From a virus (Duplodnaviria; Caudoviricetes): DNA of 64,000 nucleotides. Under the pieces are notes generated by a model. It worked only from the letters and a program-made list of their open reading frames with translations, searched no databases and was not told where the DNA came from. The translations under genes were made by a program, and so were the position numbers. Location: positions 32,001 to 96,000 of the IMG/VR virus record IMGVR_UViG_3300037067_003221. One strand, given 5' to 3'. Positions 4,560 through 41,923 of the stretch are shown here, piece after piece. Each line of letters begins with the position of its first letter. The stretch's first letter is position 1.

Positions 4560-4916
4560 CTACCTGCCCCCCTCGATTAGCGAATCTAGTTCGCTAGTCG
4601 GAATATCCTGATTGTAACGGCTCACACCACCCCAAAGGTGGATATGGGCCATACAATACGCATAACCGGCTTCTTCGGCAGTACCGGCTTTACTGGTCAA
4701 AGTGATACGAACGTCAGAACCGGAAAGAGCGTCACAAAACCTAATTCGGGCACGATACTTACCATTAGGTAATTCGTCAACACCGTCAAAACCCGTAGGA
4801 TTAGGAAAAACCGGATAAATTGGGCGGGTTGCTTCCCTTGCCCTGCGCGCCCCTAGCTTGCGTATCGCGCTGTTTGCAATCGATAATCTTTCCGTTTTCG
4901 TCAAGGTTGTGAACAT
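4560..4916 (-). CDS. AP2-domain-like DNA-binding protein
   Basis: TGFDGV..GKYRARI..GTAEEAGYAY resembles the AP2 fold motif. Confidence 0.6.
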   Translation of the reverse strand: MFTTLTKTERLSIANSAIRKLGARRAREATRPIYPVFPNPTGFDGVDELPNGKYRARIRFCDALSGSDVRITLTSKAGTAEEAGYAYCMAHIHLWGGVSRYNQDIPTSELDSLIEGGR

Positions 4917-5217
4917 GATTTTTCCCTTTCCCTTGCGTATTGCTTGCCCCTGTCTATATCAAGTATGCAGTATGAAAAGCAATTGTCAAGGAAAATTCCG
5001 AAAATTATTTTTTCAACCCGCAAGCAACTAGAAAACGGTTTATCGAAAATTGGGGATTATCATCTTTGAAATAATCCGCCAATTTTTCCGATAAATGCTC
5101 GATAACCAGTTTTTCCCCTACATCCGAAATTTTCAATTCGGCAAGGATAATCGCTGCAATCGCTTCATAATGTTTTTTCGACATGATTGTTTCAACCGTT
5201 AAAGGCGTTAAAATCGT

Positions 5218-14626: not shown

Positions 14627-14799
14627 TAGTAGTCCTCTTCCATACTGCCGTCAGAATAGCCCTCACTCCATCCTTCGGAATGACCCCGATTCCAGGCAGC
14701 AAGCCAAATTTCATGGGCGAGTTCCTTACCCTCAACCATATCGGGGTAATGTTCAAGCCACCACAATTCAAAATCTCGATTCATAGTTACCTCTTTCAG

Positions 14800-14872
14800 G
14801 GTGGCCGACGGGACTCGAACCCGCGCATCGCGGATTCACAGTCCGCCGCCTTACCAACTTGGCTACGACCAC
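14800..14872 (-). tRNA. tRNA-His(GTG)
   Basis: Cloverleaf; anticodon arm GCGGA-CTGTGAA-TCCGC; T-loop TTCGAGT. Confidence 0.9.
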
Positions 14873-16144: not shown

Positions 16145-17242
16145 TTAGTCCCCAGCCTTAAAATTGTAAACCGGCTTGAGAACGTCCGTAATATCCGCCG
16201 TAGGCTCGATATTCGCTACAATCTCTTCCATTGCTTTATACGCCATAGGCGATTCATCCAACGTGTCGGGCGTAACGCTAGTGGTATAAATACCCTCCAT
16301 AGAGGCAGTAAAATCTTCCATGTTCAGCTTGCGTTTCGCTTCTTTCCGGCCCATCAACCGGCCCGCACCGTGCGGGGCTGATTGGTTCCACTCATAGTTG
16401 CCCTTACCCACGCAAAGCAAGCTACCATCCCGCATATTGATCGGCACAATAAACGGCTCACCCGCCCTTGCCGACACCGCGCCCTTTCGCAGAATGTTTT
16501 GCATATCGATGTAGTTGTGAACAGTTTGAAACTTGACAAGGCCGGTAAGCGGCACACCGAGAAGTTCCGTCACAATCCGACGAACCATTGTAACACGGTT
16601 CAGCGTTGCGTATCCCTGCACAGTCCGCATATCCGTCAAGTAATGATCTTTGAACGCGCCCGTTAAATAGCACAGGTCACGATGAATTTCAAGCCGCTCC
16701 GGGCAAAGTTCAGCGGCAAGGTGCTGATAATAATCAGCTACCTGCTTACCAAGGTTTCGGCTTCCCGAATGCACTACCAACCAAAGATCACCGGCAGTAT
16801 CGTGATTCACTTCGATGAAATGATTACCGCCGCCGAGCGAACCTAACGCAAGATCATAGTCGGCTTGTCGAATGCTCGCACCGCAATACAGGCCCGATAC
16901 ATCAAAGTGAGTCTGCGCGGTTTCATTGTTTCGGAAACCAAACGGGATTTTTTCGCGGATAAAATCGTCAAGCCGCTTCAAGTCAATCTCACGCTCGACG
17001 CGAACAACCGCCACCCCACAACCAATATCTACACCCACTAAGTTGGGGACAACCTTATCGCCCACCATCAGGGTGGTGCCGATAACGCAACCGGCCCCGG
17101 CATGGCAATCGGGCATGATACGCACCTTTGAATTAGCAGCAAACGAATGATCGATAAGTTGCTGTATCTGCGCGATAGTCGTTTCGTCCGGCGTATCCGT
17201 GAAGATTTTAGCCGCGGTGTAGCGTCCGGTAAGTTCGATCAT
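16145..17242 (-). CDS. rtcB: RNA-splicing/repair ligase RtcB
   Basis: MPDCHAG, VGVDIGCG, LGGGNHFIE, VHSGSR, HNY, SAPHGAGR and DESPMAYK motifs. Confidence 0.95.
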   Translation of the reverse strand: MIELTGRYTAAKIFTDTPDETTIAQIQQLIDHSFAANSKVRIMPDCHAGAGCVIGTTLMVGDKVVPNLVGVDIGCGVAVVRVEREIDLKRLDDFIREKIPFGFRNNETAQTHFDVSGLYCGASIRQADYDLALGSLGGGNHFIEVNHDTAGDLWLVVHSGSRNLGKQVADYYQHLAAELCPERLEIHRDLCYLTGAFKDHYLTDMRTVQGYATLNRVTMVRRIVTELLGVPLTGLVKFQTVHNYIDMQNILRKGAVSARAGEPFIVPINMRDGSLLCVGKGNYEWNQSAPHGAGRLMGRKEAKRKLNMEDFTASMEGIYTTSVTPDTLDESPMAYKAMEEIVANIEPTADITDVLKPVYNFKAGD

Positions 17243-31625: not shown

Positions 31626-32485
31626 TTCCTAGTATCCTGCAAGTGAAAATTGAACTCTAAACAATTATACCATATTTTCGGCGGTTGTCAAATAAAATTT
31701 GCCCATTTTTACTTGATGCACACCCCGCCATTGAGAAGCGGCGGGCCTCCAAAAAATCGGCACATTCATTACATCCAGAGTTTCCCATAACATTTTCAAC
31801 CGCTCGCCCTGTCGCCCCCACTCGTTATTGTGGAAAACGATATGCACAGTTTCATTCTTCAAAGCCGAATGATCTTGCCGGGGCAACGATATGCTAAAAT
31901 TATCGATGTAGTTGTAGATTTCCACCACAACCGGCAATAAAATACGAGGAATAATCGCGCGGGTGTAGTGCTGCCGAATGGCAGTGCCCGAAAAATCCTG
32001 AATGTCGTTAAAGTCGAAAATCTTCATGTAATCACCACTACATCGACTAACCGCTCACCCTCTTCGAGTGGGATTTCGTCGTAATGCTCCGAGAGGATAC
32101 CACGGGAATAAACGGAATCGGTCGATTCGATACGCCCGGCCAGCCGATATTCATGGTCAGGCGCAGGCAAAACGATAACCGGGTTGCCGGGGATGGACTG
32201 CAAAGCTGCAATCAACTGATCTTTACGCATCGATTTCCACCTGTTCGAGAATGATAATGTCAAAATGCAAGTCACTAAGGAACTTATATTTGACAACCGC
32301 TTCACCGTCTTGCAACCGAACTTCGATACTATCGTACTCTTCATACTGATAGTTCAAGCTGTTGCGGATAATCTGCTTGATGCCAGCCGAATTAACAGCA
32401 TAGCCGTCAAGTATCTGATCGCTATTGTGGTCGCGTACAATGAAAATCATAATCAATTATACCTCATGTTTCCCGGTTTGTCAAA

Positions 32486-33495: not shown

Positions 33496-34999
33496 GGCGT
33501 TCCGCTACCAGCCGGTGGCGGCAGCATTTCCGCGACTTCGACCGTGGTTTCTGGACAGAAAAAATGCCGGTGTCGCATCGCTAACTCAACCATTTTAATT
33601 TGATGTGGCATCAATTTAATCATCATTTTCCCTTAGCGCAAAATTTAGGCCGGGCGATTAAGTCCCGGCCAAGCATATCACAGGGTCAAGTCGAAATCGT
33701 AGCAATCCGAATTAACAAGACCACGGTATAGCGTCATAAGTTAATGATTCTTTGACCGTAACACGTTCTAAGAATCCGGGTGCAGTGTCATAAAGCCGAC
33801 TATAATCAGGGTGAGCAACACCCCTAGCCGCTTGCACCGTGGCGGCAACGTCAGCATGAAGCAAATCTTCTTGCGACAAAATCACAACAGACCGATCTTC
33901 CACTTCCAAGTATTTATTGGCTCGGTGGCCTGTCGCCGGTCGAATCAAACATTTCACTTTGTTCTTGCCCGCGACCGCGCAAGCATGAAGCACTTGTTGA
34001 AACGAACCATTCCAAATCAAATACACATTCACATGCTCAGGAATTGGATACTGAACAACTTGCTTGATGGTGGTAATACCATGAGGCTCTTTCGACATTC
34101 TTCTACTTCTCGGCTTTCCGTTCAAATGATAAATGATGAATAAAACACACTTCCAAGCGCGTTAAGGTATGGGCATATTTAGTTCGGCCCGACTTTGGGC
34201 ACCCTAATAAAACCCTCCCCATGCCGCGAATATAATACGCCAGCATCGCGGCCTAGCGTAATGACTTGATCGAGGGCTTTTCCAAAAGCCATCTTTGCCT
34301 CTTGAACAAATTGCTCTTTAAGGTCGTTTTCACACACCCAAAATTGCACCGAATTATCTTCGTAGATTTTCGACCAACGCCATTTTGAAAGGCGCGGTTT
34401 GGGCATCGGTTTCGTACAAGCAATAGTTTGAATCCAGTGGAGCATGGTTAAATGTAAATATAATCCCGATGAATTTTTTGCGGGAAGCATTTTCGCGGGT
34501 CCAAGAATGCGTCTCGATAGTCCATAGCGTCACTCTCGGTATCGAACAACTTTACTTTGGGGTTGTTGATACCCGTAGGTTCAAGTTCGCCATTTTTCAA
34601 CAGCCACTTAACACCTAAACCGACTTCGCCATTTTCATCCACAGGGTTGTATTGCGTAGCAATAGCCCAATAAAATTCGTTCATGCTGGTACGTCCTTAA
34701 ACCAATATCTCCGTTTATCGTAAGTCAAATCAGCTAGGATGTACTCAATCCTAGCGTACACTGCATCGTTCGGCAAGTCGGCCCGTGCCCGACGTTCGGC
34801 TTCCAACATGGCATCCCTATTAGCCGCTTCGAGATTTACACACTCGCGGCTTTCGTAATTCCAAAACAGGAATCGTTTCATAACTCGTTCATACCGATAG
34901 TCCGGTATAACCTCAGTCATACGTTGAATGCAGCCAAAACGATGTTTGACATACACTTCAATCACTTGCAACAATTCTGTTCGTAGATGCTCATTCATG

Positions 35000-36595
35000 T
35001 TAGTTCCTTACAAAGTCTGCCATAACAGCCGGGCAGGCGGCATCAAAGCCGACAACATCCAACATCCCGGCATCATTCGGATCAGCAATAGTGAATCCAG
35101 TCGCCGTGGTCCCGGCCACGATCAACTTGGCGTTAATGCCCATTTTCTGACGGTATTGCGTCAAGGCTTGGCATGGGTGAATATCACCCGACCACGTTTC
35201 ATTATCGGTATAGATAATGAAAGCATCAACTTCAATTTTATTCTCCGCTGCGTACAGCATCGGAAGGGCACAATCAGTGCGGGACATTCTGATCGACTTA
35301 ATCAAGGCAATCACTTCGCTCAATCGAGAGCAACGGTTAATGTCCATCGGACTAATACCCCCGGAAAACGCCGTAACCAGCGTTTGCGGCTCAGTCTTAG
35401 TCGTAACCATCGACATGCAAGCCGACACATCCCTAGCAGAGAGATTCGTATTGGCTACACGCTGGCTACCCATCGAACCCGATACGTCAAGGGCAACCAT
35501 GTGCCGCTTGCCAGTCGGTTCAACTGCATCGAAAGACGCATAAAACGCATCTTCCAATGCCGCCGTAATTTGAGTTACAGGGGTCCAAGTCAATGCACCA
35601 CGGAAACCGTGGCCTTGACGATAGGTGTCTTGTGCAAGCAAGATCGACAACGGATGCACGCGCGCCCGCTTCAAATCTTCCATATTCATTAGGTGTCGGC
35701 ACACCAAATTGGTTGCAGCCGACAGCGGCTTCAATAGCCCGATGCTGGACAACTTGCCGAGATTGCGAATCAAGGCAGTGGGCGGCATGTGGGGCAGCAA
35801 TTCTTCCCAAATGACCGTGCTATTAAGCAACGTATTCGGAACATGCTCGAACGACATTTGATACTTGCGAATTAAATCCGCAGCCTTACGTTCGTCGCCG
35901 GGTCCGAGTTTTTGAATTGCTTCAAACCCTTCAACGATTGCCAAAGGCGAGTTAGCAGGGATGCAAGGAATACTGCCACCCTGAGTCAGATACTTGTATA
36001 GGGCGTTTCGCACATCGCTATTGGTCCGTGGGTGCGACAGCCGCAGCGCATCGCGGTGCGTATAACCTTCACGGTTACGATACTTCGTAACTTGATAGGC
36101 CAGCCGCTCTATTGGCATAACGTCATACCAAGTGGCAACTGCATTACGCAGACCACGGCCCCAACCACGCATTTCCTTACACGCTCCGATGAATTGGAAT
36201 AAGTGCGTCGGAATACGGCACACGGTCGATAGGTGGTGCAGAGCATGGCTACGGGCAACATTGTCGCCGTGACTTGCCACAAGGGCAAGAGCGAAGATTG
36301 CCGCATCGTTCTTAGGTGCCCGGCCAGCCGAACTAATACCGGCAATAGTCTTAACCGTGCGAGACGAATCGACGGCGGCACATTCCAACACGACCTTAGC
36401 ATTATCCACAGTCATCGGGCGTTCGCCAACATAATACGAACCGCCCTCGCATCCGAGAATCAAGAACCGTTCAAGACGGGTCCAAATATCCGTTGCGAAA
36501 ACAAATCCGCCAGCGTTATTTTTGACCTGTTCGCGGCCAAAGATAGCTTGCGATTGCGAAGTTTTGCGAGACGAAACATGCTGTGCGTAACTCAT
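35000..36595 (-). CDS. rsr: Ro60/Rsr (TROVE + vWA domain) RNA-binding protein
   Basis: NNAGGFVF, RFLILG.EGGSYY, RGWGRGLR, KYRNREG, ALIRNLGK, DVSGSM (MIDAS), TDCALPM, YTDNET, GMLDVVGFD; GGAG RBS before the ATG at 36595. Confidence 0.95.
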   Translation of the reverse strand: MSYAQHVSSRKTSQSQAIFGREQVKNNAGGFVFATDIWTRLERFLILGCEGGSYYVGERPMTVDNAKVVLECAAVDSSRTVKTIAGISSAGRAPKNDAAIFALALVASHGDNVARSHALHHLSTVCRIPTHLFQFIGACKEMRGWGRGLRNAVATWYDVMPIERLAYQVTKYRNREGYTHRDALRLSHPRTNSDVRNALYKYLTQGGSIPCIPANSPLAIVEGFEAIQKLGPGDERKAADLIRKYQMSFEHVPNTLLNSTVIWEELLPHMPPTALIRNLGKLSSIGLLKPLSAATNLVCRHLMNMEDLKRARVHPLSILLAQDTYRQGHGFRGALTWTPVTQITAALEDAFYASFDAVEPTGKRHMVALDVSGSMGSQRVANTNLSARDVSACMSMVTTKTEPQTLVTAFSGGISPMDINRCSRLSEVIALIKSIRMSRTDCALPMLYAAENKIEVDAFIIYTDNETWSGDIHPCQALTQYRQKMGINAKLIVAGTTATGFTIADPNDAGMLDVVGFDAACPAVMADFVRN

Positions 36596-36617
36596 TCTTT
36601 TCTCCAAATTAAAAATT

Positions 36618-36677
36618 AGGCAAGTTAGTGGAATGGGGTGCTTCAAAACCAAATTGATAACCCATCCCGTTCGGCCC
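36618..36677 (-). ncRNA. Minimal Y-RNA-like stem-loop Y1 in the rsr 5' region
   Basis: GGGC(C)GA..GGGATGGG-TTATC-loop-CCCATTCC..TTGCCT; bulged-C helix. Confidence 0.75.
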
Positions 36678-36689
36678 AAATCACACTCA

Positions 36690-37055
36690 CTACCAGTCCA
36701 TGCGGAACGAACCAAAATTGGTGTCGATCAGCATTTCTTTGAATTGATCTTCGGTCATTGCGGCATCTTCCGGTTCGTCATGGACGAAATTCAAGAAGAA
36801 TACCCAATCATACACTTGATACCGTTCGTAATCATACGGCAAGCAAGCATCAACCCACTCACCAATTTTACCATATTCGCCCTTATGGATAACCCAAGGG
36901 GCTTTCTTCTTATCGCAAAATTGTTTCCAAACTTCAAACCGTTCGGCTAACGGGAGCGACGTATCTGTTACATACTCCCGAAGTGCGGGCTGTACATACT
37001 TATGGTACTTCTCATTGTCTTGCAAGTGCGTAATAATCTCAGTAATTTGACTCAT
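36690..37055 (-). CDS. Hypothetical protein inside the Ro60/Y-RNA locus
   Basis: GGAG RBS; lies between the Y-like RNAs and rsr. Confidence 0.65.
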   Translation of the reverse strand: MSQITEIITHLQDNEKYHKYVQPALREYVTDTSLPLAERFEVWKQFCDKKKAPWVIHKGEYGKIGEWVDACLPYDYERYQVYDWVFFLNFVHDEPEDAAMTEDQFKEMLIDTNFGSFRMDW

Positions 37056-37156
37056 ACGTTCTCCAAAAGGTAAATAAGTGACTTGGCAGTTGCGCGACGA
37101 CTGCGTTTCCCCGGTGCTACCAGGGCTTTCTTAACGTCATTGAAATACAAGTCTTT

Positions 37157-37218
37157 GCGGACTAGGTATGTCGATAGGGGGCATCATTAACAGTGATAAC
37201 CTATCAACCTCGGCCCGC
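37157..37218 (-). ncRNA. Minimal Y-RNA-like stem-loop Y2
   Basis: GCGGGCCGAG-GTTGATAGG-TTATC-loop-CCTATCGAC..GTCCGC. Confidence 0.7.
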
Positions 37219-37225
37219 ACAAACA

Positions 37226-37299
37226 GGGATACATTTGGGACTTGCACCCAATCCTACGTATTCTTCTCTACGTCGCTCTACTACTAAGCCAATATATCC
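37226..37299 (-). ncRNA. Pseudo-tRNA with an 8-nt purine-only anticodon loop
   Basis: Acceptor GGATATA/TGTATCC, D arm, ACGTA-GAGAAGAA-TACGT, TTGGG-TGCAAGT-CCCAA. Confidence 0.6.
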
Positions 37300-37330
37300 G
37301 GGGACTCTATAGCGTCCCGCACAAAAGGGT

Positions 37331-37463
37331 TGGGCGTGAATGGGACTCGAACCCATACTGTTCCTTTGATAATGGATAACGCTTTACCGTCGGCCCGCGA
37401 TATACTCAGCCGGGCAAAAGGTGGCAAAACGGTTTAACGTGCTGCCATTACACTATCACGCCC
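37331..37463 (-). ncRNA. tRNA/Y-RNA chimera Y3 (Ro-binding helix replaces the anticodon arm)
   Basis: 8-bp acceptor GGGCGTGA/TCACGCCC, D arm TAGTGTAATGGCAGCAC, T arm ATGGG-TTCGAGT-CCCAT, internal CGTTTTGCC..TTGCCCG / CGGGC(C)GA..GGTAAAGCG-TTATC. Confidence 0.8.
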
Positions 37464-37800
37464 ATAAATTCAATTACTGTAACTGCTGTTTAGCTTGTGT
37501 TAACGCAGCAGCTTTCTGGTGATTCAATACCGCAAGCCGAATATCTTCATATTCAAACCCACTAATATACCCGTCGTCCATTGCAGTTTTTACTAGTTGC
37601 TGAACACAGGGATTATTGTCGCGTAATACTCGCACTTCATTGTAGCGATCGGATGAAATTTCTAGGCTCTGCTCGAATGAAATCAAACCAATAATCAACG
37701 CAACGATCCACAGACTGATTAAATTAAATACACTCTCTAAAATCGCGTCCAGAGACTTAAAAATTTTATTCATTTTTTGCTCAACCTTTCTTAAATTCAG

Positions 37801-37884
37801 TACCGAAGGTGGGAGTCGAACCCACACGGTCCTTCGACCACTGGTTTCTAAGACCAGCGCGGCTTCCAGTTACGCCACTTCGGC
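37801..37884 (-). tRNA. tRNA-Leu(TAG)
   Basis: CTGGT-CTTAGAA-ACCAG; long variable arm. Confidence 0.92.
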
Positions 37885-37891
37885 TCATAAG

Positions 37892-37975
37892 TACCGGAAG
37901 AGGGACTCGAACCCACACGGCCTTTCGACCCCCTGCTCTTGAGGCAGGCGCGGCTCCCAATTACGCCATTCCGGC
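37892..37975 (-). tRNA. tRNA-Leu(CAA)
   Basis: CCTGC-CTCAAGA-GCAGG; long variable arm. Confidence 0.92.
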
Positions 37976-38131
37976 AAAATCTAAGTTCAACTAAATACCC
38001 AGTACAGGAATGCAACGCCTGCCATATCAAACAGAAACGTCTGCACAACAATGGCCGGAGCATTTACATCTTGGATAGCACTAATAAGGCCGCTCATTAA
38101 AAATGCTTCCAATAGTACAAATACTAACAAT

Positions 38132-38284
38132 CTAATCTTCTTTCTTGTCATCGCTGATACCCTTCTTAAACTCCGTGATACTCTGTCCCAATGACCGCAT
38201 CACAGTAGGTAGGCGGTTGCCGAACAACATGAAGGCAATCAGGGCCACAACCAACCAATGGAACATGCTAAAACCACCCATCAT
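38132..38284 (-). CDS. tatA: Twin-arginine translocase TatA/TatE subunit (50 aa, missed by the ORF track)
   Basis: MMGGFSMFHWLVVALIAFMLFGNRLPTVMRSLGQSITEFKKGISDDKKED: TM helix, FG hinge, LP, amphipathic helix, FKKG; GGAG RBS. Confidence 0.9.
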   Translation of the reverse strand: MMGGFSMFHWLVVALIAFMLFGNRLPTVMRSLGQSITEFKKGISDDKKED

Positions 38285-38305
38285 AAACTCCCGTTGTAAA
38301 TTTCC

Positions 38306-38449
38306 GTCAGTCCAACCCGCCTACTCACGACCGCTTCCTAACGACTAATTCAAGCCGCATCGTCACAAGTCGCCCTTAGCTCTTACAGCAAACCACCCAT
38401 GAGAGTTGCTCGTCGTAGCTGACTCTCCCCCTCGGCGGGTGCCGACTAC
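38306..38449 (-). ncRNA. Putative structured RNA upstream of tatA
   Basis: Closing stem AGTC..ACCCGCC / GGCGGGT..GACT; internal GAGAGT..ACTCTC hairpin; begins GTAGTCGGC. Confidence 0.4.
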
Positions 38450-40023
38450 TCCTCAGTGACCTTAACTGGCCCCCGCTCCTCCATGAGTGAGATTAACGCT
38501 TCCAATGAACTACCCGTACAACGGGCGGCAAAGTTTGGTGTTGCTTCCACCATCACCCCGTTTTCAACAGTGGCGTGAACATCCATACGTGCGTTTTCCA
38601 AGTGCCATTTCTGAATCATCTGGTTTCCTCTAAAAGGTTTCATCAAGGTATTCTTCGACTAGCGAATCGTAAACAGCTTCTCCACAGGCGAGGCTTTCAA
38701 TGGCAAGTCGCAAAGCGAATTTGTCCAGAGTAAAGCCGTGCGATACAATCCACTTACGGTCGATTCGGCTACCACTTCTATGCCAGAAGCACAGAACCTC
38801 GGCATCCGTAATATCCACTTCGGGCGGTACGGGTGCTTCCCACGAATTATCGCGGTAACGCTGTGCCTTTTGGCCGGGCCGCACTTTGAAGGTTAAGTCA
38901 ACTTCAAAGCAGTTGCCCGTGTCATAGTCGGTAAGTTTTGCGTAAGTGTGACTCATATCTTAATTATACACTATTTTTCGGGGTTGTCAAATGGATTTTT
39001 AATAATTCCGGCTTGTTGCCGCCAAAAGCCAATCTCACGCAGCAATTCTTGACCATGATCGGCCTGAATCTGAGGCCACATGGCTGTGCCGCCAGGGTCA
39101 CACTGCAAACAAATCATCACTTGGCGACCGACGTTTGTGATTGCTTCGTCGCTGGCAAGCGGAAGCGAATCATGTATCAGTCCATAGTCTTTAATGTCCA
39201 TATTAAACTATACCACAGTTTTCTGACTTGTCAAGTGGAATTGCCACAGATTGTCCAAATAATCCTATACCCCTACCATTGACGGTTGGGTAGTACCATG
39301 TATGATTACGATTCTGGTACTGTATAGTGCCCAGAGTATTCACGCCAATTTTCAACTCGCGTATAAGGAACAACCCCACAATCGAGGAACAAGTCAAAAA
39401 ACGAACCACTTCATCGTTGATGATGAATTTGAATATGTACCCGGCAGCCGGTCGCCCACGTATATCCACGCCAATATCCATAATAGAATGTTCGCCCAGA
39501 TAAGTCACCGTCAGGGTTTTACCCCACGATTCATGGAGATTGTTGCCATTGTGCATCAAGTAATCCCCGCGATGGGGATTGTCAATCACTGAGTTACCGA
39601 CTGATAAATAGCGCATATTAGTCCAGGTGAAAAATGGCTTTGAGAGCCATGCCAAGTCCCGTGGCTACCGACATTGCAAATGCAACGCCAACGATTCCAA
39701 GCAGCCACTTGAAAATAATTTTGTAGTTGTCAATTACCGCAGTAATCAACAATCCTAACAACCCAAGAAACCCGATCAGAAACACTAACGCCGGGAATCC
39801 AATCTGCATACATTGAAAATAGTATTGCATTACAATGTTCTCCAAATCCAATCAGGCCAGCCAAGCATAATGTGAAATAGTTGATTGGATGTAAGTGTGT
39901 CGTGCCACAGGACGTGATTAAGTATCCGCGCGACAAAGTATCCCGTACCAAGGTAAAAGGCCGCTACCAGCCCCAAGCCAAAGGCACCACTAGCAAGTGC
40001 CTTGGCTATTTCTTTCAACTGGT

Positions 40024-40917
40024 TCATTTCGCCGGAACCTCGCCCATGTGAATCAAGGGAAGCGGGTTCGGGGAACTACCGTCAAGGAAATAAATCTTGG
40101 CGGCGGGGTCTTTGCTCATAGATTGCAACGCCTTCAACGCTTCAAGTTGAATAAACGCAGGGCTACCAGCAATCGCCTTGTTAATCTTTTCAATCTCATA
40201 CGCCTGTGCATCAGCCATCGTTCGCTTACGGGAAGCATCAGCTTCGGCAGACTTCTTTTCAGCCTCGGCCTTTACAACAACTTGCTCCTGTGCAGATCGA
40301 TACCGTTCAAGTTCGGCCTTCTGAGTTTCAACCTCCTGTGACCGCACCTTCTTAGCTTCAATCGCCTTAGTGATGTAGTCGGGCAGTTTCATATCACGAA
40401 TCAAAACGGAAGTAACATCGAGACCCTTGCTATCAAGCCGCTTTTGCAGCCCAATCAACAGTGAATCCTGAATCAACTTTTGTGTAGTATCCAGATAAAA
40501 ATCCTCGCACTTCTTAATACTCTTGCCATTCTCGCGGGCAAGCGAACGTAAGTTAGGAATCAAATGAACGGCCACAAGTTGTTCTTCGTTGCCGGTTTCC
40601 GTCAAAATCTTTGTCGCCAAAGCCTTCTTGACTCGATAGTTGACCGATACATCGACGATAGTGATCTGTTGATCTTCGGTGGGAATGCCAATTGCTTCTT
40701 TCACCGTCTTTTCACGGGCATCGAAGGTAGTCCACGAAAGCAGTGGATTGACAGGGAAGTGCATACCTTCATCGTAAACATCTTGCACCTTGCCAAACAA
40801 GGTCGCAACGGATACTTGACCAACAGGTACAGACTTCATGGAGCAACAGCCGCCAATCAAAACGAACAGGCCCAGAAATCCAGCCAAACACACGCCAACA
40901 ATTTTCTTCACGCTCAT
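40024..40917 (-). CDS. SPFH/band-7 (prohibitin-like) membrane protein
   Basis: N-terminal TM, FGKV..EGMHF.NP, VDVSVNYR, AIEAK and an Ala/Glu coiled coil. Confidence 0.9.
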   Translation of the reverse strand: MSVKKIVGVCLAGFLGLFVLIGGCCSMKSVPVGQVSVATLFGKVQDVYDEGMHFPVNPLLSWTTFDAREKTVKEAIGIPTEDQQITIVDVSVNYRVKKALATKILTETGNEEQLVAVHLIPNLRSLARENGKSIKKCEDFYLDTTQKLIQDSLLIGLQKRLDSKGLDVTSVLIRDMKLPDYITKAIEAKKVRSQEVETQKAELERYRSAQEQVVVKAEAEKKSAEADASRKRTMADAQAYEIEKINKAIAGSPAFIQLEALKALQSMSKDPAAKIYFLDGSSPNPLPLIHMGEVPAK

Positions 40918-41923
40918 TCTAACTCCTCTTGTTAATTTCCGGCCCGACCGTCGGGCCGCTTACCATCATTGTACTTGTAACACGCTAACTTTGCTTCCGC
41001 AATTTCTTCATGCGTTTTTAAGCGTCGGACTCGTACAAAGTCCATTCCGCCGAAAGACACAGATAATCGCGGCAACGCATTTAGTAGCAACCTAACATGC
41101 GGATAATTGCAATATATACGTATTGGTTGCCAGTTACTCGCAATCTTCGCTTCCAGTAGTAGTCTCGGTGTCCTGAACATTACGCAACTTCTCCGGGGCT
41201 TGCATTACAACATAGCCCCTTGTTTGTAAGGCAAGTGCCTCTTCTTCCGTGATTCGTTTCAAACGATAATCCCATTTCCACGTCTTATGCAATAACTCTA
41301 CGGCAACAAGGTGTTTTTGAATGTCACCTTGGAAAATTAGGTTAGTGTCTTGCCAGACACCACGTTTATGTTGCAGTAAGTATAGTAGTTGTGCTGTCAT
41401 TTTAACTCTACTCGATTGGGCATCCCGACTCTCGCAAGTTCCTCTTTCAGACGAAAATTCTCAATTTTCAAGAGTTCAATTTCTCGAACTTCGTTATTCA
41501 CCGATTGTTGCGCAATGGGTTCAAAATCCAACTTGCTTGCCAACCGGCCAGCGAGTTGCATTTCAAGATCGTCAAGTGGTCGTGTCAGCGAAATCTCAAA
41601 GAGATATTCGTACACGCGCTCACACTCTGCTCGCAATAATGTAATCATTGAAGTAGTTTCAATTTGTGCCTCAATTGTTCACACTCTTTATTTAATTCAT
41701 CGAGGCGTTTGTTGAGTTCTTTAATGGCATCCTGTTTCCATAATTCTAACAGACTTTGCACTTGTTCTTTGGTAATGTAGTAATAATTACTGGGTATATA
41801 AAACCAACAGCTTTGCCACTCAACATCACCTTTTGTGAACGATTCAGTCTTATTTTCGGAAATGCGGAGAATACAGCCGCCTGCATGATATAATTTATAT
41901 CCAATCATAAATCACCTTTCAAA

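Follow-up and report, generated by a model that had tools for sequence, protein, structure and literature searches.

In this study, we analysed a 64,000-nucleotide stretch of phage DNA, hereafter the window, which corresponds to positions 32,001 to 96,000 of the IMG/VR virus record IMGVR_UViG_3300037067_003221 (Caudoviricetes). On its minus strand, from 37463 to 37332, lies a tRNA-ordered element of 132 nt, counted from G-1 to C73, in which a closed Y RNA helix stands at the place of the anticodon arm. An intact rsr gene, encoding a Ro60 ortholog, is found on the same strand 740 nt downstream. We conclude that this window element is probably the gene for a noncoding RNA of ~130 nt, a Y RNA of the YrlA kind in native tRNA order, which would be cut out and matured like a tRNA, bound by Ro60, and equipped with a tRNA module for effector binding or tethering.

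Architecture of the window element

Read 5′ to 3′, the element consists of the acceptor 5′ strand, TA, the D arm, 7 unpaired nt, a 52-nt hairpin, TTATC, the V hairpin, 5 nt, the T arm and the acceptor 3′ strand. Every feature of this minus-strand order that had been listed in an initial annotation of the DNA was found by direct reading. The parts are as follows.

37332–37463, minus strand: entire gene of the tRNA-order Y RNA (41 bits with the Rfam tRNA model; 111.7 bits with covariance model (CM) R2; 36 of 36 pairs standard)
37456–37463, minus strand: acceptor 5′ strand GGGCGTGA, G-1 plus G1–A7, partner of 37332–37339
37439–37453, minus strand: D arm GTGT-AATGGCA-GCAC, with A14, G18, G19 and A21
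37380–37431, minus strand: closed Y RNA helix, 52 nt, at the anticodon-arm position (direct sequence reading)
within 37431–37380, minus strand: upper stem of the Y hairpin, 9 bp, CGTTTTGCC / GGTAAAGCG
within 37431–37380, minus strand: internal loop of the Y hairpin, ACCTT across from a single C
bulged C at 37392, minus strand: lower stem of the Y hairpin, 7 bp, TTGCCCG / CGGGC(C)GA
37410–37398, minus strand: closing loop of the Y hairpin, 13 nt
37375–37396, minus strand: Ro60-site signature GGGCCGA-N9-GTTATC
37379–37375, minus strand: TTATC
37362–37376, minus strand: V hairpin at the variable-arm position, TCC, 9-nt loop, GGA
37340–37356, minus strand: T arm ATGGG-TTCGAGT-CCCAT
37332–37339, minus strand: acceptor 3′ strand TCACGCCC, T66–C72 plus C73

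The tRNA frame, an open acceptor stem followed by a D arm and then a T arm, is matched by the Rfam tRNA model (RF00005), which aligns to 37332–37462 over model positions 1–71 with a score of 41 bits, against a gathering score of 29, and an E value of 3e-5 over the window. This alignment contains a 73-nt insert in the anticodon arm that replaces 13 model positions. The nucleotides that make tertiary contacts in tRNA are present in the element (U8, A14, G18, G19, A21, G53, TTCGA and C61). A normal anticodon arm, with a 5-bp stem, a 7-nt loop and a defined anticodon, is not present in it, and ARAGORN in standard mode, without introns, does not call it. The initial annotation described an 8-bp acceptor. 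Eight pairs are indeed formed, but strictly they are an open 7-bp stem plus a G-1:C73 pair, because in the 7 relatives that encode CCA it comes directly after the last paired base, a placement that fixes the first base as −1 and the last as N73. In the window element, CCA is not encoded and the trailer past C73 reads AACCC.

The inserted hairpin carries the bulged-C helix, the GGGCCGA and TTGCCC strands and the TTATC that had been recognized earlier, and the motif is common to the two neighbouring Y RNAs. A hallmark of the Ro60 docking site is present: CGGGC(C)GA pairs with TTGCCCG, C 37392 is bulged, and the helix covaries in the family described below. A hallmark of Y RNAs is absent, in that the 5′ and 3′ ends do not form the Ro60 stem; the predicted ends lie in the acceptor stem. 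The signature GGGCCGA-N9-GTTATC, which is of the 5′-strand type in ordinary Y RNAs, makes up the 3′ strand of this closed hairpin, which bears out the swapped strand order proposed at the outset. Exact matches to it number three in the 64 kb, all on the minus strand (at 37396, 37216 and 36677) and all within 790 nt upstream of rsr. When the folding of the window element was compared with that of shuffled sequences, its z-score was −2.67, and only 1 of 200 shuffles folded better.

Relatives beside Ro60 genes and the relation to YrlA

R1, a covariance model for which the window sequence was the only input, gave full-length matches of 118–138 nt in further phage contigs of IMG/VR, where they lie upstream or downstream of Ro60 genes. 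Read by eye, these matches have the same order of parts, with the Y stem closed by short loops (GCAA, CUUG and others). A second model, R2, was refined from ten elements found with R1 and run on 61 phage loci and on 80 bacterial loci that had been retrieved using the window's Ro60; its seed included one locus (L052) that was later rejected as an artefact, a minor contamination. With E values up to 1e-9, R2 yielded 73 matches in 9 distinct phage contigs and 46 bacterial loci; two of the 73 matches were flagged as artefacts. Approximately 70 elements of the tRNA-order design thus lie beside Ro60 genes in Myxococcota, Gemmatimonadota, Planctomycetota and phages. Among the bacteria that carry them are 14 complete Sorangium genomes, Minicystis rosea (DSM 24000), Kofleriaceae, Gemmatimonadota, Isosphaeraceae and Candidatus Brocadia; in Sorangium cellulosum So0157-2, the element occupies NC_021658.1, complement 9586814–9586935. 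The view of the element as an oddity of one phage has to be given up, as the class is widespread and extends to bacteria.

The covariation that had been suggested as a check in related phages was found in both phage and bacterial loci. In the R2 alignment of the 73 relatives, 94.5% of cells are paired and 33 of the 36 pairs change on both sides; when partners were slid by 1–3 columns as a control, pairing fell to 34–48%. All eight acceptor pairs covary, with 97.7% of cells paired, and the Y hairpin exhibits compensatory changes at 9 of 9 pairs in its upper stem and at 6 of 7 in its lower stem. Pairing reaches 99.7% in the D stem, 100% in the T stem and 85% of cells in the V hairpin. The family consensus keeps GgGcCG...ggUUA.C and the T-loop region GGUUCGA.UCC, and the loops that close the Y stem measure 2–13 nt in 69 of the 73 relatives. 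Because alignments made with a covariance model favour the structure of that model, an independent run with MAFFT and RNAalifold was made on 25 diverse members. The 8-pair acceptor stem emerged again, as did the D stem, the lower Y stem and the T stem; the upper stem is hypervariable, was misaligned by MAFFT and was not recovered in this run.

Linkage to rsr was also seen at the scale of whole genomes. In three bacterial genomes (6.9–16 Mb), for each of which the best 150 first-look candidates were scored, all five long matches of at least 67 bits lie within ~3 kb of the single rsr gene. A 135-nt match of 54 bits in Sorangium cellulosum So0157-2 (G001:C1:4251864-4251998, minus strand) is located far from that genome's only Ro60 gene. 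Searches of cultured phages by blastn gave no match to the window locus, and only tRNA-sized partial matches to one family member. The tRNA-order form occurs in 0 of the 10 cultured phages sampled, and classical YrlAs are found there instead.

In published bacterial YrlAs, the T arm comes ahead of the D arm, a loop closes the acceptor stem and the RNA ends lie in the Ro60 stem; their authors describe them as like circularly permuted tRNAs without a free CCA end (PMC4201824; for the structure, Wang et al. 2018, 10.1101/312249), and in published work their origin is placed in dimeric tRNA transcripts. Few YrlAs were found by Chen et al. (2014) in the delta-proteobacteria, a group that includes the myxobacteria (PMC4201824). 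To compare the two forms, the family alignment was cut in the Y loop and rejoined at the acceptor ends, giving a rotated, sequence-only hidden Markov model (HMM). This rotated HMM aligns to classical YrlAs over 118–120 of 120 positions with E values of 1e-19 to 1e-13 (L023, 69.7 bits; L003, 66.6 bits; Gordonia phage Cashline, 65.4 bits), and it also matches the YrlAs of Catera, FuzzBuster and Vibrio phage BONAISHI. The match extends over the full length of YrlA, and therefore the tRNA-order form and classical YrlA are circular permutations of each other, in support of the permutation put forward in the initial annotation. At the level of sequence, the window element is homologous to YrlA by circular permutation, with its predicted ends moved to a tRNA-type acceptor stem.

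Classical YrlAs were identified with a canonical covariance model, R3, in ~32 phage and 18 bacterial loci. At E values up to 0.001, neither the window nor any other phage locus with the tRNA-order form yielded a classical YrlA with R3, and the two forms seldom occur in the same locus. In the search with Rfam models that had been proposed earlier, the YrlA model (RF02553) gave no match in 34000–41000 even at E values up to 10. On the Cashline YrlA, used as a positive control, RF02553 scored 42.2 bits (E 7e-8), below its gathering score of 69; because at that threshold it misses every classical YrlA in 12 loci, it can be used only as a control at the level of E values.

RNA type follows Ro60 lineages. 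In a FastTree phylogeny of 134 Ro60 proteins, the two RNA types require 11 changes; when labels were shuffled, the figure was 34.9 (minimum 27). Only the classical type occurs in a clade of 43 members from actinobacteria and actinophages, and the tRNA-order type is the one seen in the clades of Myxococcota and Gemmatimonadota. In the same tree, the window's Ro60 joins those of two other loci, L001 and L002 (support 100), and then that of an Isosphaeraceae metagenome-assembled genome.

Several further features were observed in the family loci. The region around rsr in Minicystis rosea (L093; CP016211.1, 8253738-8261378) holds 35 tRNA genes in 7.6 kb, and Sorangium and Kofleriaceae loci (L119 and L131) have 11–15 tRNA genes around rsr; such dense arrays are seen in myxobacteria. 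In the spacers of the Sorangium tRNA array near rsr (L119, ~4787–4812 and 4945–4990), closed Y-type hairpins stand alone, without a tRNA frame; one example reads CCGTCGTCC...TCGCCCG-ACC-CGGGCCGAAGGACGACGG. The V hairpin of many members has a 3-bp stem and an anticodon-loop-like 7-nt loop, Y-U-N-N-N-A-A (for example, L131 5716–5784), as in CUGUUAA, CUGCUAA, CUCAUAA, AUGCAAA and UUUGUAA; the window's V loop has 9 nt. ARAGORN reads a ‘tRNA-Asn’ out of the V hairpin of one relative. Tandem arrays of 3–4 tRNA-order units are present at L131 5518–5928, L124 1239–2139, L128 5320–6001 and L082 1886–2491, and their junctions score 55–65 bits with the canonical-YrlA model. An AT-rich phage contig (L044, 5833–6912) contains at least 4 tandem Y/tRNA-like units downstream of rsr, which match both models weakly (33–46 bits) and have poor acceptor pairing.

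The rsr locus, proposed maturation and alternative readings

The window element shares its locus with a gene for its presumed protein partner and with two small Y RNAs.

35000–36595, minus strand: rsr, Ro60 ortholog of 531 aa, the presumed protein partner (Pfam TROVE, E 4e-44; vWA_Ro60, E 3e-65)
37154–37222, minus strand: small Y RNA 1, ordinary topology (RF01656, the nematode Y-RNA homolog family, sub-threshold, 28.2 bits, E 0.014; exact motif at 37216)
36610–36683, minus strand: small Y RNA 2, ordinary topology (RF00019, Y_RNA, sub-threshold, 27.9 bits, E 0.019; exact motif at 36677)

Small Y RNA 1 has both of its ends in the Ro-binding stem and lacks the tRNA domain; small Y RNA 2 terminates in a U run ~15 nt ahead of the rsr start codon. 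Between the window element and small Y RNA 1 lies a 73-nt tRNA-shaped element (37227–37299, minus strand) with an acceptor stem (GGATATA/TGTATCC), D and T arms, the T loop TGCAAGT and, at the anticodon-loop place, an 8-nt purine loop, GAGAAGAA. It is called by neither ARAGORN nor Rfam, and its R2 score of 31.5 bits is in the range of ordinary tRNAs. Farther away, the phage encodes an RtcB RNA ligase (window ~16157–17131, minus strand; PF01139, 158.9 bits; 368-codon open frame). In Salmonella, RtcB belongs to one operon with rsr and Y RNAs.

In the proposed mechanism, the RNA would be excised by tRNA-processing enzymes from a transcript spanning the array of tRNA and Y RNAs, its 5′ end being made by RNase P and its 3′ end by trimming and CCA addition. 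The phage Ro60 ring would then bind the closed helix (GGGCCGA, the bulged C and UUAUC), and the tRNA-shaped module, with its free acceptor end, may constitute an effector-binding or tethering domain, as has been proposed for YrlA. The window RNA might also serve as a nuclease decoy.

Several points weigh against the reading of the element as a tRNA-like Y RNA. The first bases of the trailer differ from those of most phage tRNA genes, 10 of 12 of which continue N73-C-T, encoding the first C of CCA and then T; with AACCC at this place, the 3′ end may not be processed in the same way. Below the bulged C, the helix runs for only 5 bp to the loop, less than in either of the two ordinary Y RNAs of the window, and therefore the geometry of Ro60 binding could differ. 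The minimum free energy (MFE) fold of the single sequence, at −44.2 kcal/mol, is not the proposed cloverleaf, at −40.5 kcal/mol, a gap of 3.7 kcal/mol. Finally, the alignments made with covariance models carry the bias towards the model structure mentioned above. A gene for a CCA-adding enzyme was not found in the 147-kb phage record.

The same locus could be read differently, with the element acting in cis on a precursor transcript and not as a stable, trans-acting Y RNA. Its hairpin would recruit Ro60 together with exonuclease partners, and its tRNA frame would be punctuation for RNase P and 3′ cleavage. The element starts 10 nt after the stop of an open reading frame (ORF), is followed by the pseudo-tRNA and further Y RNAs, and has no convincing promoter or terminator of its own: a scan for both gave no more sites than in shuffled sequence, with one weak −35/−10 match that ends 13 nt 5′ of G-1. 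The stand-alone closed Y hairpins that Sorangium has in spacers between tRNA genes beside rsr, and the position of bacterial rsr within dense tRNA arrays, are likewise consistent with a role in cis. However, conservation or covariation extends to the full elbow set (U8, A14, G18, G19 and GGUUCGA.UCC) and to each of the 8 acceptor pairs, which exceeds what punctuation of cleavage sites needs, and the rotated homolog, classical YrlA, is a stable Ro60-bound RNA (PMC4201824). We consider a purely cis-acting element unlikely. It is far less probable still that the element is a true tRNA gene from which an intron-like insert is removed to give a decoding tRNA. The Rfam tRNA score exceeds the gathering score, ARAGORN in intron mode reports 71 of 74 family members as intron-containing tRNAs, and the phage encodes an RtcB ligase, all of which would suit such a gene. 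Yet the regenerated anticodon arm that the initial annotation had named as a possible outcome of splicing is not obtained, as removal of the hairpin leaves no 5-bp anticodon stem with a 7-nt loop. The ARAGORN predictions are also inconsistent: intron positions, anticodons and isotypes conflict among near-identical Sorangium orthologs (Arg, Gly, Ala, Pro, Val and Asn), and the window element receives the unnatural anticodon AUC. Moreover, the insert is the most constrained part of the element, with the Ro60 motif and covarying stems, and we know of no bacterial endonuclease for an intron of this kind.

A further concern is that tandem classical YrlAs imitate the tRNA-order design at their junction, and such artefacts do occur. 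On sequence reading, a 66-bit match in Gordonia phage Cashline was rejected as the junction of two tandem classical YrlAs, and the matches in L052 and L021 were rejected because they overlap classical YrlAs found with R3. The Cashline pair (L056; MW534378.1, 2677–2947) consists of two tandem classical YrlA genes and sits in a 645-nt stretch that lacks annotation, between the integrase gene and the Ro60 gene of this cultured phage. True members were distinguished by a closing loop of 2–13 nt, 7–8 of 8 acceptor pairs and, in most loci, a single copy. The window element is a single unit with an ORF upstream, all eight acceptor pairs and a closing loop of 13 nt, and the canonical-YrlA model has no match in the window; the closing loops of 2–13 nt in nearly all relatives exclude the reading as a tandem junction. 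Decay of a tRNA with a chance insert is excluded by the conservation and covariation over ~70 elements. An artefact of either origin is thus barely credible.

The tRNA-like acceptor end raises the question of charging. That the RNA is matured exactly as a tRNA and then aminoacylated through an acceptor-end identity independent of the anticodon, so that Ro60 would carry a charged tRNA mimic, is in our view improbable. If true, the charged mimic might bring Ro60 to EF-Tu, to ribosomes or to tRNA-repair enzymes, or signal the supply of amino acids. Of the 73 relatives, 65 retain the −1:73 pair. It is G-1:C73, the mark of tRNA-His, in 24 of 71 relatives, the window included, and U:A or U:G in many myxobacteria, and other types also occur. 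G3.U70 with A73, the mark of tRNA-Ala that is also used by transfer-messenger RNA (tmRNA), is found in eight members (11% of 71), with Kofleriaceae among them. The variety of pair types at −1:73 suggests that what is conserved is an extra pair and not a single amino-acid identity. A histidine identity as a rule of the family was dropped, as G-1:C73 is confined to the 24 members given above.

The phage has a tRNA-His gene of its own (window 14799–14872, minus strand), which has C73 and a T at −1, so that G-1 is not encoded. Outside the window, the record contains a Thg1-like gene, for a tRNA-His guanylyltransferase or an enzyme of 5′-end repair (G000:C1:27180-27569, plus strand; PF04446, 101.5 bits). 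The enzyme could add the G-1 missing from the phage tRNA-His. Among other contigs, a Thg1-like gene was found in 0 of 5 with the tRNA-order RNA, all of them fragments, and in 1 of 5 with classical YrlA.

Comparison with known RNAs and significance

Among known systems, YrlA (RF02553) has most in common with the window element: the Ro60 helix, which has the GNCGA motif and a bulged C and precedes UUAUC; a tRNA-like module in which both the D and T arms and the elbow nucleotides are present; a V hairpin; and a same-strand gene beside rsr. The two differ in connectivity, in that the window element has its D arm before its T arm, an open acceptor stem and a loop-closed Ro60 stem. Mycobacterium smegmatis YrlA is cut in vivo by RNase P in the acceptor loop and receives CCA (PMC4201824). 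The processed RNA has tRNA-type acceptor ends, as predicted for the window RNA. However, it is in two pieces, retains open Y-stem ends and is made post-transcriptionally, whereas the window RNA would be one piece with tRNA ends encoded in the DNA. Deinococcus radiodurans Yrn1 and the metazoan Y RNAs (RF00019) share with the window element a bulged-C helix, GGUCCGA-like and UUGACC-like strands and UUAUC, but in both the RNA's own 5′ and 3′ ends form the Ro60 helix and an open acceptor stem is absent. Yrn1 has a T-arm-like element, and its Y stem replaces the acceptor stem, not the anticodon arm as in the window element.

Outside the Y RNAs, tmRNA and viral tRNA-like structures are, like the window RNA, tRNA mimics with a free acceptor end, a T arm and another domain in place of the anticodon arm. 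In tmRNA, these are combined with G3.U70, an mRNA domain and the partner SmpB; the window RNA has C3-G70 and a predicted Ro60 site. An extra G-1:C73 pair on a 7-bp acceptor is known from tRNA-His. The latter has a GUG anticodon arm, which the window RNA lacks, and the −1:73 pair of the relatives varies, so the likeness is limited to the extra pair.

No description of a tRNA-order Y RNA topology was found in the papers searched or read, and Rfam has no family for it. The design therefore appears to be undescribed so far. Of the RNAs linked to Ro60, it is the predominant form in Myxococcota, in Gemmatimonadota, in some Planctomycetota and in several groups of phages. For annotation, this means that tRNA finders miss the genes of tRNA-order Y RNAs or, in intron mode, mislabel them as intron-containing tRNAs.

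The tandem arrays of tRNA-order units are the intermediate that would be expected if classical YrlA arose by duplication and permutation. The tRNA-order form suggests a simple and testable route, in which the anticodon arm of a tRNA turned into a Ro60 site, the gene was duplicated in tandem, and the unit spanning the junction became classical YrlA. The finding also raises the question of whether a Ro60-bound RNA is processed, CCA-tailed and even charged like a tRNA, and the cultured carriers Sorangium and Minicystis are organisms in which the tRNA-order Y RNA can be studied.
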